Source of the DNA: Syntrophales bacterium
Lineage (GTDB): Bacteria > Desulfobacterota > Syntrophia > Syntrophales > UBA2210
Reading direction: 5' to 3'
Assembly: GCA_963662405.2 (NCBI GenBank)
Contig: CAXXKT010000001.1
Location: 1,408,001 to 1,472,000, forward strand
DNA length: 64,000 nucleotides
Shown here: in pieces, positions 6,085 through 17,016 of the stretch
How the letters are laid out: each line of letters begins with the position of its first letter
Numbering within the stretch: position 1 is the stretch's first letter
Made by a program: the position numbers and the translations under genes
Notes under the pieces: generated by a model
The model's database searches: none
Seen by the model: only the letters and a program-made list of their open reading frames with translations
What the model was told of the DNA's origin: nothing

Positions 6085-6225
6085 TTAATGGTATTTTGTC
6101 AAGAAATTTTGCTGTAAGGCAATAGGTAGTCAGCAGAAGCTGGTGTTGCTCACTCAAAAAAGGAAAAGCCTTGCCGTTGTGACTTTTTGGTGTTAAGGCT
6201 ACATAACAACAGGGGAGGTGATAAT

Positions 6226-6459
6226 ATGGGATCGGCAGCAATACGGGCCACGGTGTACCTGGACCCGGAATTACATAGAGCTCTTCGTCTGAAGGCGGTT
6301 GAAACATCCCAGTCCTTGTCGAAATTAGTGAATGATGCCATCAAAGAATCCCTGGCTGAAGACGCTGAAGATATTGCAGCCTTTGAGGAAAGAATAAGAG
6401 AGCCCTTAATCAGCTACGAAACGATGATCAAGAGGCTGAAAAAAGATGGCAGAATATGA
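6226..6459 (+). CDS. Antitoxin, CopG/ribbon-helix-helix type
   Basis: RATVYLDPELHRALRLKA...SLSKLVNDAI RHH pattern and acidic C-terminal half. GGAGGTG RBS. Overlaps the toxin start. Confidence 0.85.
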   Translation: MGSAAIRATVYLDPELHRALRLKAVETSQSLSKLVNDAIKESLAEDAEDIAAFEERIREPLISYETMIKRLKKDGRI

Positions 6460-6703
6460 GATTTGTTTCAAAGAGTCCGTTGAAAAAGACTTCCGTGCAA
6501 TCCCCAAAAAAGATTTAAGAAAGATTCTCGATCGCATTGAGGCGCTTTCTCAAGATCCGAGACCACCGGGCCACGAAAAGCTTACAGGGCAAGAGAGATA
6601 TCGTGTTCGCCAGGGGCTGTACCGGATCATCTATTCCATTCAGGATAAAGAGCTTACAATCTGGGTAATAAAGGTAGGACATCGAAAAGATGTTTATCGA
6701 TGA
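6446..6703 (+). CDS. Type II toxin, RelE/ParE family
   Basis: 85 aa with KLTGQERYRVRQGLYRIIYSI...VIKVGHRKDVYR, the RelE signature. Confidence 0.92.
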   Translation: MAEYEICFKESVEKDFRAIPKKDLRKILDRIEALSQDPRPPGHEKLTGQERYRVRQGLYRIIYSIQDKELTIWVIKVGHRKDVYR

Positions 6704-7462: not shown

Positions 7463-7562
7463 ATTTCTATAGCAGAACGGTGTTTGGTTGGTTCTATACA
7501 AAAATTCAATTTGTCTATGCTTGAAGTCAATAAGGAGGTCTAAATGTTATCTTAGGTTACGC

Positions 7563-7712
7563 AAAAAAAGCCCCATCTCTCTTTTTAAGAAACAGGGCTT
7601 TAGATGATCAGACCATAATCCCCCCCCGGTTACAGCTGCTCAAAAGCATAGATAATACGTTCAAGATCAATAATGTACTAAACCACTAACTCCATCATGA
7701 TATATTGTCAAG
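7563..7712 (-). promoter_or_regulatory. Possible attenuator-like leader (promoter, short ORF, terminator)
   Basis: On the minus strand: TTGACA, a short ORF ...LNVLSMLLSSCNRGGIMV*, then hairpin AAGCCCTGTTTCT...AGAGATGGGGCTT with a T-tract. Confidence 0.35.
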
Positions 7713-7793
7713 AGATTTTACCGTGAGACTTTCAATCAGTAATCATCGATTTTCTTCAGGAATTATCCTGAGCAGTTGTAGATACCGTTCTTG

Positions 7794-8762
7794 TCAAGCG
7801 AAAGCTGGTTTATAATTTGGGTCATACTTTTTGCCGGATTTCAGGATTCCAAAGATAAGGTGCACCAGCTTCCTCATTATCGCACAGACAATCACTTTCC
7901 CGTTTTTTCCTTTCTCTTTAAGGCGATTATAAAAAGCAATCATAACGGGATTACATTGGATCGATACCAGTGCCGGCATATACAGAGCTTTTCTGAGCCG
8001 CGCATGTCCGATTTTGCATAACCTGGGTTTGCCTTTAATAGATGATCCTGAAAGTGTTTCCCGTGGCGCAAGCCCGATGAACGCCACCAGTTCCCGCACA
8101 TGACTGAATTTGTCCAGATCATCCAATTCTGCCAGGATGTGAGGAATGGTTGCCGTGCCGATACCTGGAATGGAAGCCAAGAGCCCTTTCTTGTTTTTCA
8201 GGTTCGGATCCCGATCAATTAGATCAGCAATCTGTTCCCTGATTTTCTCTATTTCCTTATCAAGATAGTTAATGTGTTCTCTGATCAATGGAATAACTGA
8301 TTCATGAGCTGCACTTATTCGATTCTTCTCCTGACTTCGCATGTTGATCAGACTGTCAACTCGCCTGACCAACGCCCTCAGGGCTCTGATCTCCGGTGAG
8401 GGTGGACTCCAGGGATCTGGTCTCATAGCCAGACAGAATCTGGCAATCAAGGCTGCATCAATCTTATCCGTCTTGGTGCGAATCAACTCGCTCTGGCCAA
8501 ACCCTTTGATGCGAGCGGGATTGACAACACTGACCACATGGCCGGTTTCATGGAGATAGATCGCCAATTCCTCTCCATAGTTGCCGGTCGCCTCAAGGCA
8601 GGCATGTACCTTATGAACTCCCTGTCTCTCCAGCCAGATCGTCAGTGTCTCAAAACCTTCCACCGTATTTTTGCAGGTTTTGTGTTTTGTCTTCCCCTCT
8701 ACAAGAAGTGCAACGTCGAATTTCTGTTTTGCGATATCTATCCCAAGAACCGATACTGACAT
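7794..8762 (-). CDS. IS110 family recombinase/transposase (DEDD RuvC-like + Tnp domain)
   Basis: GIDIAK, CLEATG, KTDKIDA, SIPGIG, AFIGLAP...SGSS, LRKALYMPA and AIMRKL motifs. 322 aa, intact. Confidence 0.96.
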   Translation of the reverse strand: MSVSVLGIDIAKQKFDVALLVEGKTKHKTCKNTVEGFETLTIWLERQGVHKVHACLEATGNYGEELAIYLHETGHVVSVVNPARIKGFGQSELIRTKTDKIDAALIARFCLAMRPDPWSPPSPEIRALRALVRRVDSLINMRSQEKNRISAAHESVIPLIREHINYLDKEIEKIREQIADLIDRDPNLKNKKGLLASIPGIGTATIPHILAELDDLDKFSHVRELVAFIGLAPRETLSGSSIKGKPRLCKIGHARLRKALYMPALVSIQCNPVMIAFYNRLKEKGKNGKVIVCAIMRKLVHLIFGILKSGKKYDPNYKPAFA

Positions 8763-8805
8763 ACTACAATACTCCCTCGTACATTAATCTAATCTCCAGT
8801 AAAAT

Positions 8806-8960
8806 AGCTTCGTTCGAATCAACCTTGCAAGTGCAAACTCATTCCCATCTGAGAAGGTTTATGATACCGTACGAGTTATTGAACAAAGCTGTGGGAAGAG
8901 GATCTACTCTACAAATCATGCTCTCTGGCATCAGGTGAAACACAGATTCACTCTCCCCAT
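8806..8960 (-). ncRNA. IS110 bridge RNA (target-binding and donor-binding loops); true 5' end may extend toward ~8995
   Basis: Stem 8951-8959/8892-8900 encloses GTTTCACCT (8933-8941) and TTTGTAG (8909-8915). Stem 8881-8890/8806-8815 encloses ACGGTATC (8863-8870) and GCAAG (8824-8828). These match the target and donor junctions of the element. Confidence 0.85.
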
Positions 8961-9162
8961 TTTACCCCAGTGTCTCAAGATCTCTTATATCTCCTAATCC
9001 CCTTCTAGAACACAAGGTGAAAAAAATAACGAGTCCGAAGCTTGTTTCGCCGGTGGATATGAGAGAATATATTCGGATGGGCGCGGGACGAAACAACCAG
9101 GTCTTTGTACTTTCTGAAAACCGTGATATGTTGGTTCGGTAAATATTTCAAGGGAGGGTCCT

Positions 9163-9948
9163 ATGTTTACTTTTCATGATGTTTTGCTGGACACAACCGA
9201 CAGAATCGCAACCGTGACGCTCAATCGCCCCGAGGCGAGGAATGCCTTTAACGGTGGAATTCTCAGGGGATTGTATGACGCCGCGGCCCATATCCTGGGC
9301 GACCCGTCCATCAGCGTGGTCATCCTCACCGGCGCGGGAGAACAGGCGTTTTGCGCCGGGACGGACCTGAAGATGATTTCTTCGGGTGAGGACATGACCG
9401 GCGGGATGGAACGGCATGACCGCTTCGGGCATATACAGATCTATCGGGACTGCTTCACGGCGTACGAGAAGCTTCCGGTTCCGGTCATCGCGGCCATTAA
9501 CGGCTATTGTTTCGGCGCCGGCCTGGAGCTGATTCTGGGGTGCGATATACGATTAGCCGATGAAACGGCGATGTTTTCCATCCCCGAGGTTCAGCTGGGG
9601 ATTATGCCCGACGGGGGCGGGACGCAGAGGCTTCCCCGAATCGTGGGCGTCGGCAAGGCCAAGGAACTCATCTATACCGGGCGGAAGATCGATGCCCCGG
9701 AGGCGCTACGCATCGGGCTGGTGGAACATGTCTATCCCAAGGCAGACCTGATGGGCGAGGCCCAAACGCTGGCGCGCGAGATCGCCGACAACGGCGATCC
9801 GGTAATCGGGTGCAAACGGGCGATCAATATCGCCGCGAACTATTCCACGGATGTGGGACTCCTCTTTGAATCCACCACGCAGCAGTCCTATCTGGAGGCG
9901 TTTCAAAAGGGCGCCGGCAAGATGCTGGAGAAGGTGAAGAAGAAATAA
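9163..9948 (+). CDS. Enoyl-CoA hydratase/isomerase
   Basis: TLNRPEARNA, AFCAGTDL, PVIAAINGYCFGAGLEL and PEVQLGIMPDGGGTQRLPR motifs. Confidence 0.93.
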   Translation: MFTFHDVLLDTTDRIATVTLNRPEARNAFNGGILRGLYDAAAHILGDPSISVVILTGAGEQAFCAGTDLKMISSGEDMTGGMERHDRFGHIQIYRDCFTAYEKLPVPVIAAINGYCFGAGLELILGCDIRLADETAMFSIPEVQLGIMPDGGGTQRLPRIVGVGKAKELIYTGRKIDAPEALRIGLVEHVYPKADLMGEAQTLAREIADNGDPVIGCKRAINIAANYSTDVGLLFESTTQQSYLEAFQKGAGKMLEKVKKK

Positions 9949-11457: not shown

Positions 11458-12150
11458 CTATTTGATCAGCATACTGGACGCGTCCAGGGCGAGCCGGGAG
11501 AGACCGGAGATGATATCTTCCGGTCCTTTCAGCGGCTTGATCCGGATGTTGGTTTCCTCCGGTTCGAGTTTGAGCGCCACATCAAACAGATCCTGGATAT
11601 CCGCTATCGATGTCGGAAATGCACCGGAGGAGGCGTTTTCGTGGCGGTGGGTATGCACGCTGAACCATACCTGTAGCGATTGCTCTCCGGCCAGCATCTT
11701 CATTTCTTCCAGACAATTCCGTGCTGATTCGTCGAATCTGAGGCCGTCCACAATGATCATGTCGGGACGAAAAATGTTCTGCTCGTCGAGATCCATAAGC
11801 CGTTCTCGCAATTTCGGCACGCTGAACCCGGCGATCCTGAAGGTCATGATAAAGCGGTGCGGGAGCAAAGATTCCAGGGAAATGTCACCCTGCTCGACCC
11901 CGTCCCTCTGGCTCAAGTGATGGAACAGCTCTTCATACCAAAGGGTTACCTTGTCGACCGGATCAATCATACTGATATGCAGGACATTCTGGTCCCTCAG
12001 CATGGTGTTCAGGGCAAGTTGTACCAGGAGGGCGGTCTTGCCGACACCGGCCCGTGAAAGGACGGCTCCGAACTGTCCCCCGGCAATAATATCGGGGACC
12101 CCGCCCTTAATACCAAAGGGATGCCTATTGATGAGATCGCTTTTAACCAT
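11458..12150 (-). CDS. P-loop (RecA/KaiC-like) cytoplasmic protein
   Basis: Walker A-like SRAGVGKT and Walker B-like MIIVDG. Directly downstream of fusA. Confidence 0.7.
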   Translation of the reverse strand: MVKSDLINRHPFGIKGGVPDIIAGGQFGAVLSRAGVGKTALLVQLALNTMLRDQNVLHISMIDPVDKVTLWYEELFHHLSQRDGVEQGDISLESLLPHRFIMTFRIAGFSVPKLRERLMDLDEQNIFRPDMIIVDGLRFDESARNCLEEMKMLAGEQSLQVWFSVHTHRHENASSGAFPTSIADIQDLFDVALKLEPEETNIRIKPLKGPEDIISGLSRLALDASSMLIK

Positions 12151-12194
12151 CGGTGTACTCCTTCATACGTTGTACCGGATCCGGTTTCAGATTG

Positions 12195-14273
12195 TTATTT
12201 ACCCTTTTTGGCTTGTGCTGCTTTATCGGCGAGTTCTTCGGCGATTGACTGGGGGACCAGTTTGTAGAGAGCGAACTCCATGGTGAACTGGGCTTGTCCC
12301 TGCGTTGCCGACCTCAGGACGGTCGAAAAACCGAACATCTCCGCCAGCGGAACCTGCGCCTCGATGACGCACACGGGACCGTCATCCTGCGTGCCGACGA
12401 TCATACCACGCCGTTGATTGAGAAGGCCCATACAGGCACCCTGAAATTCAGTCGGTGTCTCGACGACGACCTTCATCACCGGTTCGTGGATAACGACGCC
12501 CGCCTTGGCGTAGGCCTCCAAAAATCCCCCTCGCGCCGCAGCCTGAAAGGCCATCTCCGAAGAGTCGACGCTGTGTGCTGCTCCGTCATTGATGACTGCT
12601 CGAACGCCGGTCACGGGGAATTCCAGTTTGGGACCCTTTGCCATGCAGGCCTGGAATCCCTTCTCACATGAGGGGATAAACTGTGTGGGGATGGCCCCTC
12701 CCACGATTTTGTTGACGAATTCGAATTCCCCTTCCGTAATCGGCTCGATATATCCCGCGATCCGACCGTATTGTCCGGAACCACCGGTCTGTTTCTTGTG
12801 CGTGTAGTTGAAATCCGCCTTGCGGGTAATGGTTTCGCGGTAGGCGACGCGGGGGTTGCCGGTCTCGACCTCTGCCCCGTACTCACGTCGCATGCGCTCC
12901 ACGTAGATCTCCAGGTGCAGCTCGCCCATCCCTTCGATGATCGTCTCTTTTGTTTCATCATCGACATGGGTCTTGAATGTCGGATCTTCTTTCGTGAAGC
13001 GGTTCAATGCCTTGGACATGTTGATCTGTGCCTTGTTGTCCTTGGGGGTGATCGCCAGGGAAATCACCGGATCGGCGACGAACATTGAACTCATGGCGAG
13101 GGATGTGCCGGGAGAAACGAATGTGTCTCCCGACGCGCAGTCAATCCCGAAAAGGGCGCCGATGTATCCTGCCGGGATTGCATCGATATCCTCCATCTGA
13201 TCGGCATGCATCCGGACCACCCGCCCGATCTTTACCTTCTTTTCCGTGCGGGCGTTGACGATTGTGTCTCCTTTTCGGACCGAACCCTGGTACACGCGGA
13301 TGTAAGTCAGCTGGCCGTAAGCGCCGTCTTCCAGTTTGAACGCGAGCGCGACCGTGGGGGCATCGGGGTTGGAGGAGAGGATGACGGGTTCTTCCCCCTT
13401 GCTCAGGTCGAGGGCCTCGTTTTTCATCTCCGAGGGGCAGGGGAGCAATCGGGTCACGGCATCGAGCATAGGCTGAACCCCCTTGTTTTTATAGGCCGAG
13501 CCCATAAATACCGGTGTCATCGCTCGGGTCAGCGTTCCCATGCGCAGGGCGTTGATCAGCAGCTCCTCGGGGATGTCTTTCTCTTCGAGAACGGCTTCCA
13601 TCAATTCGTCTGAAAACATGGTGGCCGCCTCGACCAGCGCTTCCCGTTTGACCTTGGCTTCGGAGGCAAGGGCGGCTGGAATTTCCTCAACGCGGACGAT
13701 TTCCCCGTTATTCCCGTCGAAATAGACCGCTTTCATTGTGATCAGGTCGACAACCCCCTGAAAATCATTTTCGAGTCCGATGGGGATCTGGACGGCGACG
13801 GCGTTATGCCCGAGTTTCGTTCTGAGCTGGTCGATGACCCGGGAAGGGTTCGCGCCGCTCCGGTCGCACTTGTTTATGAAGGCGATACAGGGGACTTTAT
13901 ATCGCTTCATCTGTTGATCGACGGTGATCGACTGTGATTGGACGCCTCCCACCGCGCACAGAACGAGGGCCGCCCCGTCGAGGACCCTGAGGGAGCGTTC
14001 AACCTCGACGGTGAAGTCGACATGGCCGGGAGTATCGATAATGTTGATCTCATGTCCCCGCCATTGGCAGAATGTGGCCGCCGAGGCGATGGTAATCCCG
14101 CGTTCCTTCTCGAGTTCCATAGAATCCATAGTCGCTCCGACGCCGTCTTTCCCCTTGACGTCGTGAATCGCATGGATCCTCTTTGTGTAAAAGAGTATCC
14201 GTTCCGTCAGTGTCGTTTTCCCTGAATCGATGTGCGCACTGATCCCGATATTCCGTACTTTTTTGTCATCCAT
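12195..14273 (-). CDS. fusA: Elongation factor G (stand-alone copy outside the str operon)
   Basis: [39 protein letters not shown] and GMGELHLE motifs. Confidence 0.97.
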
Positions 14274-15450: not shown

Positions 15451-17016
15451 GTGTTGAATATTAGTTTTGTAATACTGATGGTGTTGGTGGCCACGGCACT
15501 GGGTGTGGCCTTGGGCTATGTCCTGCGAAAGATGATTTCCGACCGGATGCTGGAGTCATCGGAGAAACTGGCCGCGCGGATTACGACCGAGGCCCAGAAA
15601 GAGGCGGAGAATATCAAGAAAGAGGCTATTCTCCAGGCCAAGGATCATCTCCTCAAGGCCAAGAATGAATTTGAAAAAGAGGCGAGAGACAGAAGAACGG
15701 AGATCGAAAAGGTCGAAGAGCGGATCCACCAGAAGGAGATAAATCTGGACAAAAAGACGGATCAGCTTGCCCAGAGGGAAAATTCTTTTGAAAAAAAAGA
15801 AAATAGCCTTCTCGATAAAGAAAACCTCTTGCGTGAAAAGCATGACAAGGTGGACACAATTATCGAGGAGCAACGGGCGCAGTTGGAACGGATCGCCGGG
15901 ATTTCCTCGGAGGAGGCGAAGGAGTCTCTTGTCCAGCTGATGGTGGATGACGCCCGGCACGAAGCGGGTGGTATCATCCGAAAAATGGAGGATGACACCA
16001 GGCGGGAAGCGGAAAAAAAGTCCCGCGAGATCCTGGCCTATGCGGTCCAACGATATGCCTCCGATTTTGTAGCGGAGAACACCGTTTCGGTGGTCAACCT
16101 CCCGTCGGATGAGATGAAGGGAAGGATCATCGGGCGGGAGGGGAGAAACATCCGGGCCATTGAGGCCGCGACCGGTACGGATCTCATCATCGACGATACC
16201 CCCGAGGCGGTGGTTATCTCCAGCTTCGATCCCGTACGGCGGGAAGTGGCGAAGCGGGCCTTGGAAAGTCTGATACATGACGGCCGAATTCATCCGGGAA
16301 GAATCGAAGAGATCGTCAAAAAGATCCGGGCGGAAGTTGATAAGGTGATTCAGGAGACGGGAGAGCGGGTTTCCTTCGACGCGGGGGTTCATGATGTTCA
16401 TGCCGAACTGTTGACCCTTCTCGGGCGGCTTCGGTTCCGGACGAGTTTTTCCCAGAATGTCCTGGAGCATTCCATTGAGGTTTCCCATCTTGCGGGGATG
16501 ATGGCCGCCGAGCTCAAGATGAATGTGAAAGATGCCAAACGGGCCGGCCTGCTGCACGATATCGGGAAGGCGATCGACCATGAGGTGGAAGGACCGCATG
16601 CCGCCATCGGAGCGGAGTATGCCCGAAAATATGGGGAATCCGAGAAGATCGTTCAGGCGATCGCGCAGCACCACGATGACGGGCATAACAATACCGTTCT
16701 CGGTGTCATCATACAGGCGGCGGACACCCTTTCCGCCGCACGACCCGGCGCTCGCAGAGAGATGCTTGCAACCTATGTCAAGCGGTTGGCGGAGCTGGAA
16801 GGGATAGCGACTTCCTTCAGCGGCGTCGATACCTGCTACGCGATCCAGGCCGGACGGGAGATACGCATCCTGGTGGAAAACGAGAAGGTGTCCGACAGTG
16901 ATGCCGTTATGCTCTGCAAAGATATCGTCAAAAAGGTAGAGTCGGAGATGACCTACCCGGGACAGATCAAGGTCACGGTGATCCGGGAGATGCGCGTGTC
17001 TGAGTTTGCGAAGTAG
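15451..17016 (+). CDS. rny: Ribonuclease Y
   Basis: N-terminal TM helix, coiled coil, KH motif [13 protein letters not shown] and HD motif LLHDIGK. Confidence 0.97.

Follow-up and report, generated by a model that had tools for sequence, protein, structure and literature searches.

A probable IS621-type insertion sequence with a predicted bridge RNA and readable guides in the genome of a Syntrophales bacterium

The IS110 bridge-recombinase class was described in 2024, and thousands of its orthologues have already been surveyed (Durrant et al., PMC11208160). In the loops of the Escherichia coli element IS621, the 3' side forms pairs of 4-7 nt with the top strand (PMC11208160), and a promoter arises at the junction of the excised circle (Hiraizumi et al., PMC11208158). 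Here we describe a related locus in a stretch of 64,000 nucleotides, referred to as the window, from a Syntrophales bacterium (GenBank assembly GCA_963662405.2, contig CAXXKT010000001.1, positions 1,408,001 to 1,472,000). Window positions 7780-9016 on the minus strand are very probably a complete IS110-group insertion sequence (IS) of the IS621 type that carries a bridge RNA in its left end. All window features given below lie on the minus strand unless another strand is named.

The resemblance to IS621 (PMC11208160, PMC11208158, structure entry 8wt6) extends over several levels. The recombinases align over their full length with conserved DEDD and serine residues, the left end is long and the right end short, and in the two loops of the predicted RNA the four guides agree with those of IS621 in order and strandedness. 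Both elements use a CT core and short right target and right donor guides, and a candidate -35 box in the right end of the present element would suit a promoter at the circle junction, as in IS621. They differ in their target, which is TTTCAC-CT-ACAA here and ATCAGGCCTAC for IS621 (PMC11208160), and in their host, here Syntrophales-type deltaproteobacteria. While IS621 homes to REP elements, the present element homes to the edge of a leader repeat, and it is known from its sequence alone.

The recombinase gene (7794-8762) encodes 322 residues with two Pfam domains, PF01548 (DEDD_Tnp_IS110, E 1.7e-28) and PF02371 (Transposase_20, E 1.2e-24). Residues 5-316 align to the IS621 recombinase 8wt6 with an E-value of 2e-83, and the same span aligns to ISCro4 (9t56) with 3e-82, a comparison that concerns the protein only. 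In the alignment D9, E57, D99 and D102 correspond to D11, E60, D102 and D105 of IS621, the acidic residues of the RuvC-like DEDD domain, and S238-G239 to S241-G242, the catalytic serine and its glycine in the C-terminal Tnp domain. These DEDD and serine residues make up the composite active site of IS621 (PMC11208158).

The same DEDD recombinase family includes the IS1111 group, which likewise homes to repeated recombination-platform DNA. Some of its members insert into integron attC sites. In IS1111 elements the left end is short, the RNA lies in a long right end, and long subterminal inverted repeats measure 7-17 bp (PMC11208160). In our element the layout is reversed: the non-coding left end (8763-9014), which encodes the predicted bridge RNA, comprises 252 nt, and the right end, counted from the stop codon without the CT, just 12 nt. 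This is the arrangement of the IS110 group (PMC11208160) and not that of IS1111; no dedicated search for inverted repeats was made.

How firmly can the boundaries be drawn? The genome of the window, 3.80 Mb on three contigs, holds five full-length copies, named here win (the window copy), c2, c3, c4 and c5, together with one 84-bp left-end fragment. Copy c2 is identical to win, c3 and c4 share one sequence that differs from win at 3 of 1237 bases, and c5 is 94% identical. Between copies the identity steps from 100% inside to about 80% outside exactly at the two CT dinucleotides, and therefore the boundaries proposed in an earlier sequence-only reading of this DNA are right. The element thus measures 1237 bp including one CT per end. 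Its left junction consists of the left target flank (LT) TTTTCAC (9017-9023), which equals the left target guide at six of seven positions, the CT core (9015-9016) and the inner bases TGTGT (9010-9014). At the right junction the last seven nucleotides of the element, the left donor (LD) ACGGTAT (7782-7788), are followed by CT (7780-7781) and the right target flank (RT) ACAAC (7775-7779). Each of these junction motifs, as well as the guide motifs discussed below, lies on the minus strand where the sequence-only reading had placed it.

CT bounds all five copies, and the pattern xxxxCAC-CT ... CT-ACxAx is found in every one. In the order win, c2, c3, c4, c5 the left flanks end in TTTTCAC, GTTTCAC, TCTTCAC, ATAGCAC and CTTTCAC, and the right flanks start with ACAAC, ACAAA, ACTAC, ACTAC and ACTAC. 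From the guides, GTTTCAC-CT-ACAAA had been derived as the preferred site, and this is confirmed by c2, whose junctions carry exactly these 14 bases. The match on the right is loose, with 4, 5, 3, 3 and 3 of the five bases of ACAAA in the same order of copies.

Sequencing runs were also consulted. Four of the 23 listed were examined, all of them stored as contigs, and the single loose end they contain at 7780 belongs to a paralogous copy of the leader repeat introduced below. The RNA runs on the list contain about 0.04 of the sampled words. One contig from a marine-sediment metagenome (run X4) shows 0 differences over 8676-9022, so the element is present in at least one environmental sample. 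Past 9022 only eight unlike letters follow, which are too few to show a different flank.

The four guides can be located in the left end of the window copy. The left target guide GTTTCAC with the core CT (GTTTCACCT, 8933-8941) has the sense of the target top strand and matches LT plus core at 8 of 9 positions. In the same loop lies the right target guide GATTTGT plus AG (8909-8917), the reverse complement of CT-ACAAATC; its part TTTGTAG (8915-8909) matches the core and right target at six of seven positions. The second loop holds the left donor guide ACGGTAT plus C (ACGGTATC, 8863-8870), an exact 8/8 match to the last seven nucleotides of the element and the first core base, and the right donor guide GCAAG (8824-8828), which pairs with CT-TGT at 5/5 positions including one G:T wobble. 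No site complementary to the core and right donor over 7 nt with at most one mismatch was found in the left end. In 5000 mononucleotide shuffles of the left end, the left target plus core match recurred with at most one mismatch in 82, and the exact left donor 8-mer in 10. Two of the four guide matches, left target and left donor, are hence significant in the window copy alone, and for the right target and right donor guides the assignment draws on where they lie in the loops and on the co-variation seen in relatives. Of the three differences that separate win/c2 from c3/c4, one falls at 8828 (element position 189), where G is replaced by A. The right donor guide of c3 and c4 accordingly reads ACAAG, and the G:T wobble becomes an A:T pair.

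The RNA itself is predicted to span about 175 nt (8800-8975), with both ends approximate: conservation among relatives begins 28-55 nt into the left end, and a short run of T follows the outer stem of the second loop. In a consensus fold of 39 distinct sequences the target-binding loop 1 (8893-8958) is enclosed by an outer stem (8958-8943 / 8906-8893) and contains an inner hairpin (8931-8928 / 8921-8918), while the donor-binding loop 2 (8807-8889) is closed by the stem 8889-8881 / 8815-8807. For 11 of the 41 predicted pairs at least one sequence has both sides altered with pairing kept, and in the outer stem of loop 1 six pairs are maintained despite changes on both sides. The two stem-enclosed loops that the sequence-only reading had described appear in the single-sequence centroid fold as well as in the consensus, so that the left end has two internal loops closed by conserved stems. 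We base the structure on the alignment fold, since the minimum free energy of the single sequence is unremarkable. The left end thus probably encodes a bridge RNA with two loops, which by analogy with IS621 would be produced from it.

Do guides and flanks change together in other genomes? A scan of species-representative genomes gave 443 matching stretches, 328 of which encode a relative; the best 80 were kept, mostly from Syntrophales-type metagenome genomes with 74-89% protein identity. Guides and boundaries could be read in 49 of 85 sequences, namely the five own copies and 44 loci from relatives. The other 36, distant or truncated relatives in which the anchor motif is absent, were left out of the guide tables, and locus L031, which equals L030 in sequence, was counted once. 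Left target and left target guide are identical at 245 of 329 positions (permutation mean 221.6, sd 4.2), a value that 0 of 10,000 permutations reach. For the right target the figure is 192 of 280 (mean 180.0, sd 3.7; 18 of 10,000). Allowing G:T wobble, these counts rise to 268 of 329 on the left (mean 250.2, sd 3.8; 0 of 10,000) and 224 of 280 on the right (mean 210.4, sd 3.8; 3 of 10,000); as the relatives are not independent, all permutation figures overstate the significance and are indicative only.

The co-variation is strongest beside the core, namely at positions 5-7 on the left and 1-2 on the right. Rare guide variants are echoed in their own flanks: CAT (L037, L047), TAC (L030), CTC (L070), GCAC (L035, L058, L064), GTGTCAC (L042) and ACTTAT (L026, L028). 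In L024 the variant AAC, likewise present in guide and flank, is accompanied by an unusual right target, TTCAA. Guides therefore co-vary with flanks across orthologues. CT is present in all 49 readable elements; the search patterns demanded it, and the relatives are no independent test of the core. Taken together, protein family, boundaries, loop layout and guide assignments of the sequence-only reading hold, and the relatives add independent support through co-variation.

What lies at the right side of the element is a repeat of its own. The target context of the window copy is a leader repeat of about 215 bp outside the element (7560-7779; nhmmer, alignment and terminator scan) with a terminator hairpin at 7601-7567. 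The genome contains 69 nhmmer profile matches to it, and the core is kept in 45; examples are found in L095 at 6127-6340, 12117-12330 and 15665-15880. The leader begins with a 5' module of about 52 nt, followed by an invariant TTGACA with TA 17 nt downstream, a variable stretch of about 70 nt, a Shine-Dalgarno-like run, an ATG-NNN-TGA mini-frame (ATG-GTC-TGA in the window copy) and the terminator hairpin, which shows compensatory changes. Against Rfam its sole match is a weak, NsiR1-like one at the terminator (E 0.018). Where examined, the leader stands 50-90 bp upstream of genes of defence type, namely TIR, HD-CE/HATPase, AAA_15/OLD-TOPRIM and DUF5677 genes.

All five IS copies sit at the 5' edge of the module. 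Among the 26 leader copies that keep this module, four carry an IS, one carries a scar and 21 neither, and 12 of these 21 read CAC-CT-AC at the same junction; they are unoccupied sites of the type the guides specify. An empty leader copy at G000:C1:2673146 (+) reads TCTTCAC-CT-ACAAAC. Its left flank is that of c3 and its right flank that of c2, so that here a near-ideal target is still empty. The module, which ends in GATTAC-NNN-TTGAAAG, also follows the element in 33 of the 35 readable right flanks of relatives, as read from the listing, the exceptions being L018 and L053. Only the module is shared with relatives, as seen by eye and in pairwise BLAST (22 pairs among the 35 flanks): the leader profile has no match below an E-value of 0.001 in 83 loci from relatives, and the 35 right flanks give none even at E up to 10. 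Both here and in Syntrophales-type relatives, the element homes to the 5' edge of the roughly 52-nt module.

This constant companionship raises the question whether the element might be longer than its CT boundaries, with the module, or the entire leader including its promoter and terminator, as cargo that moves along with the recombinase or through its action. A precedent exists in Pseudomonas putida, where the IS110-group elements ISPpu9 and ISPpu10 home to one repeated intergenic sequence (PMC12288879, 10.64898/2026.03.19.712850). ISPpu9 has a small-RNA-like module just downstream of its transposase gene, the small-RNA gene ssr9, which lies behind five of seven copies, with three solo copies besides, and its circles form with either or both modules (PMC12288879). 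A GATTAC-NNN-TTGAAAG-like module likewise follows all five copies here and nearly all readable relatives. The downstream repeat, however, diverges sharply from the IS and far outnumbers it: identity is 78-87% directly after the CT, between copies that are themselves identical or differ at 3 of 1237 bases, and the 69 leader matches, among them 21 module-bearing copies free of the IS, stand against five IS copies. As expected of a target, the module varies in its first bases in step with the right target guide, and by eye alone no sequence resembling the left donor plus CT is seen at the right edge of module or leader. On the identity drop, the copy numbers and the guide co-variation we reject the idea that the repeat on the right belongs to the element or is a module in the manner of ISPpu9, and consider a longer element very improbable.

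The same module could instead be what the protein recognises. If the recombinase picked its target through the conserved module without the help of an RNA, the left end would be just a 5' untranslated region with a promoter. That nearly all family members are flanked by this module would suit such a scenario, as would an extra target-encoded determinant reported for ISPpu10 (preprint 10.64898/2026.03.19.712850). It does not account for guides and flanks that co-vary position by position, down to rare variants matched in their own flanks, nor for an insertion, described below, beside a copy of the element's own guide DNA with no module on its left side. A hairpin or palindrome at the target (GTTGACTT...AAGTCAAC), hinted at by a few relatives, was rejected: reconstituted target sites have a mean z of 0.05, and z falls below -1.5 in 4 of 39. 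Unlike in ISPpu9/ISPpu10, no target stem-loop was detected at the sites of this element. Targeting by the protein alone hence appears highly unlikely, and targeting through the guides of a bridge RNA is the reading we follow.

By analogy with IS621, recombination would depend on these guides. The left target guide, having the same sense as the top strand, would form base pairs with the target's bottom strand, and the right target guide with the top strand CT-ACAAATC. Loop 2, with the left donor guide ACGGTAT plus C and the short right donor guide GCAAG or ACAAG, would hold the donor. An RNA-guided DEDD/serine recombinase would then recombine the circle junction ACGGTAT-CT-TGTGT with chromosomal sites resembling TTTCAC-CT-ACAA, with strand exchange at the CT core. 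In the right end, TTGACA (7792-7797) is a candidate -35 box of a promoter that would form only at the circle junction. It is kept in 31 of 35 distinct relatives and lies 12 nt from the tip in 30 of the 35. Across the predicted junction, 17 nt downstream, TCTTAT is found in 21 of 35 relatives and TCTAGA in the window copy. The circle, once formed, may create a TTGACA / 17 nt / -10 promoter over its junction, an arrangement that fits the junction promoter of IS621.

Several points weigh against an IS621-type element guided by its own RNA. By itself the 6/7 match of the right target guide is not above chance (2551 of 5000 shuffles), the 5-nt right donor match is too short to count alone, and right-target matching in this genome is weak, at 4-5 of 7 positions. 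The minimum free energy of the single sequence is no better than that of shuffles (z +0.54). No Rfam family matches the left end, so that no curated model backs the RNA; when 7600-9200 was scanned with E-values up to 10 admitted, just two chance snoRNA-like matches appeared, both within the gene. A promoter scan of the minus strand found no consensus sigma-70 promoter in the integrated left end, and the junction -10 box TCTAGA of the window copy is weaker than the family norm TCTTAT. In the runs, which are stored as contigs only, neither the RNA, its transcription start or end, the circle junction nor an empty allele of the window site was observed.

The weak -10 box and the lack of evidence for expression or a circle would also be expected of a dead relic, an element that no longer recombines and whose guide matches are historical. 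Such a relic is hardly to be reconciled with two pairs of identical copies at four different sites, an intact reading frame with all five catalytic residues, and a right donor guide that keeps its pairing through the G to A change in c3 and c4. The identity of the marine-sediment contig points the same way, with the limit on its flank given above. We therefore hold the relic for a very remote prospect. The element appears to be an intact, recently active copy of a known IS110-family kind, and its near-identical copies and conserved catalytic residues suggest that it is intact and programmable.

Traces of past recombination are found at two places in the genome. Copy c2 (C1:164032-165268) is adjoined by the 84-bp fragment (C1:165267-165350, in L099), which consists of CT, 80 nt of the left end and CT. 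On the side of c2 the fragment stops exactly at the guide's GTTTCAC-CT, and its outer flank reads ACTTTTCAC-CT. The left seven junction bases of c2 are thus a duplicate of the element's own left-target-guide DNA. Loci L030 and L031, from a different lineage and an unrelated metagenome genome with the guide ATTTTAC, have the same architecture; they are 2 of the 44 loci and, being identical in sequence, represent one event. The guide DNA matches the left arm only: beyond its CT, 2 of 7 positions pair with the right target guide when wobble is allowed. The c2 layout would arise most simply by a single unequal exchange, in which the LT-CT-RD junction (RD, right donor) of one copy recombines with a sister copy's guide DNA. 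Routes in two steps would also be workable, either an insertion that later collapses or an aberrant excision with subsequent re-insertion. A diverged solo left-end fragment at G000:C1:761871 (+), 71% identical over 86 nt and preceded by GATCTTCAC-CT, breaks off near the guide region and has no recombinase gene behind it.

The second trace is a scar at G000:C3:390681-390690 (L098, about 2681-2690), where ACGGTATCT, the left donor plus core, precedes a leader copy in the absence of an IS. This 9-mer runs into a PAS-GGDEF gene on the other strand that is 5'-truncated and frame-shifted, while its orthologue in the same genus is full-length. A search of this genome for the other half of the gene returned only generic PAS matches from residue 108 on. 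The 9-mer occurs 53 times in the genome compared with about 26 expected, and it is thus very unlikely that chance placed one of them at the edge of a leader. A paralogue of this PAS-GGDEF gene, 69% identical, lies at G000:C1:2540772-2542354, just downstream of two copies of the leader core.

At both scars a site agrees with just one arm and the core: in c2 it is the element's left-target-guide DNA, with a partial duplication of the left end as the outcome, and in the other a 9-nt left donor plus CT is joined to a target. Both fit the one-arm or 'half-match' recombination of two preprints from 2026 (10.64898/2026.08.31.748434, 10.64898/2026.08.14.744561). Drawing on cell-free reactions, genome surveys and circle sequencing, these report that one-sided matches and tandem partial modules are common. 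They stress half matches on the donor side, with left donor only or right donor only. In sequence, the left target guide is an ideal left target, which makes the DNA that encodes it a built-in half target; in the literature found, including the accessible parts of the half-match preprints, there is no mention of guide-coding DNA as a left-target half site. Tentatively, one might go further and suppose that the family repeatedly recombines at its guide DNA, yielding LT-CT-[left end to guide]-CT-[full element], and that this layout, the scar that truncated the PAS-GGDEF gene, and the strict homing to a module at the head of integron-like cassettes of defence genes together are a record of half-match recombination on the element's own RNA gene, of reshaping of the host chromosome, and of a lineage specialised on integron-platform DNA. 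We regard this wider view as possible but somewhat doubtful.

As the class was established before, together with its mechanism and broad occurrence, the finding adds to known biology and leaves it unchanged: the element is a new, well-documented IS110 bridge recombinase and no new variant of the mechanism. Its added value lies in a natural record that is unusually complete, with copies, empty sites and co-varying relatives, in the strict homing to a leader module, and in the two half-match scars. Work is under way to turn bridge recombinases into programmable tools for inserting DNA, and natural orthologues with readable target, donor and guides are useful raw material for it; the resource here comprises five copies in one genome, empty sites, and about 44 relatives whose guides can be read. 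Genomic evidence for recombination through one arm is added by the guide DNA, which served as a half target in two independent lineages, and by the 9-nt left-donor scar at a truncated gene. These observations also point to a hazard for design, since in any bridge RNA gene the left target is present as a copy.

Two minor observations concern other genes. The genome encodes an intact integron integrase (471 bits, cut-off 265) at G000:C1:2211990-2212934 and one that is split by a TAA stop at C1:30608-31553. In the window, positions 6446-6703 on the plus strand hold a frame of 85 residues, which by eye resembles a RelE/ParE-type toxin of a toxin-antitoxin pair.

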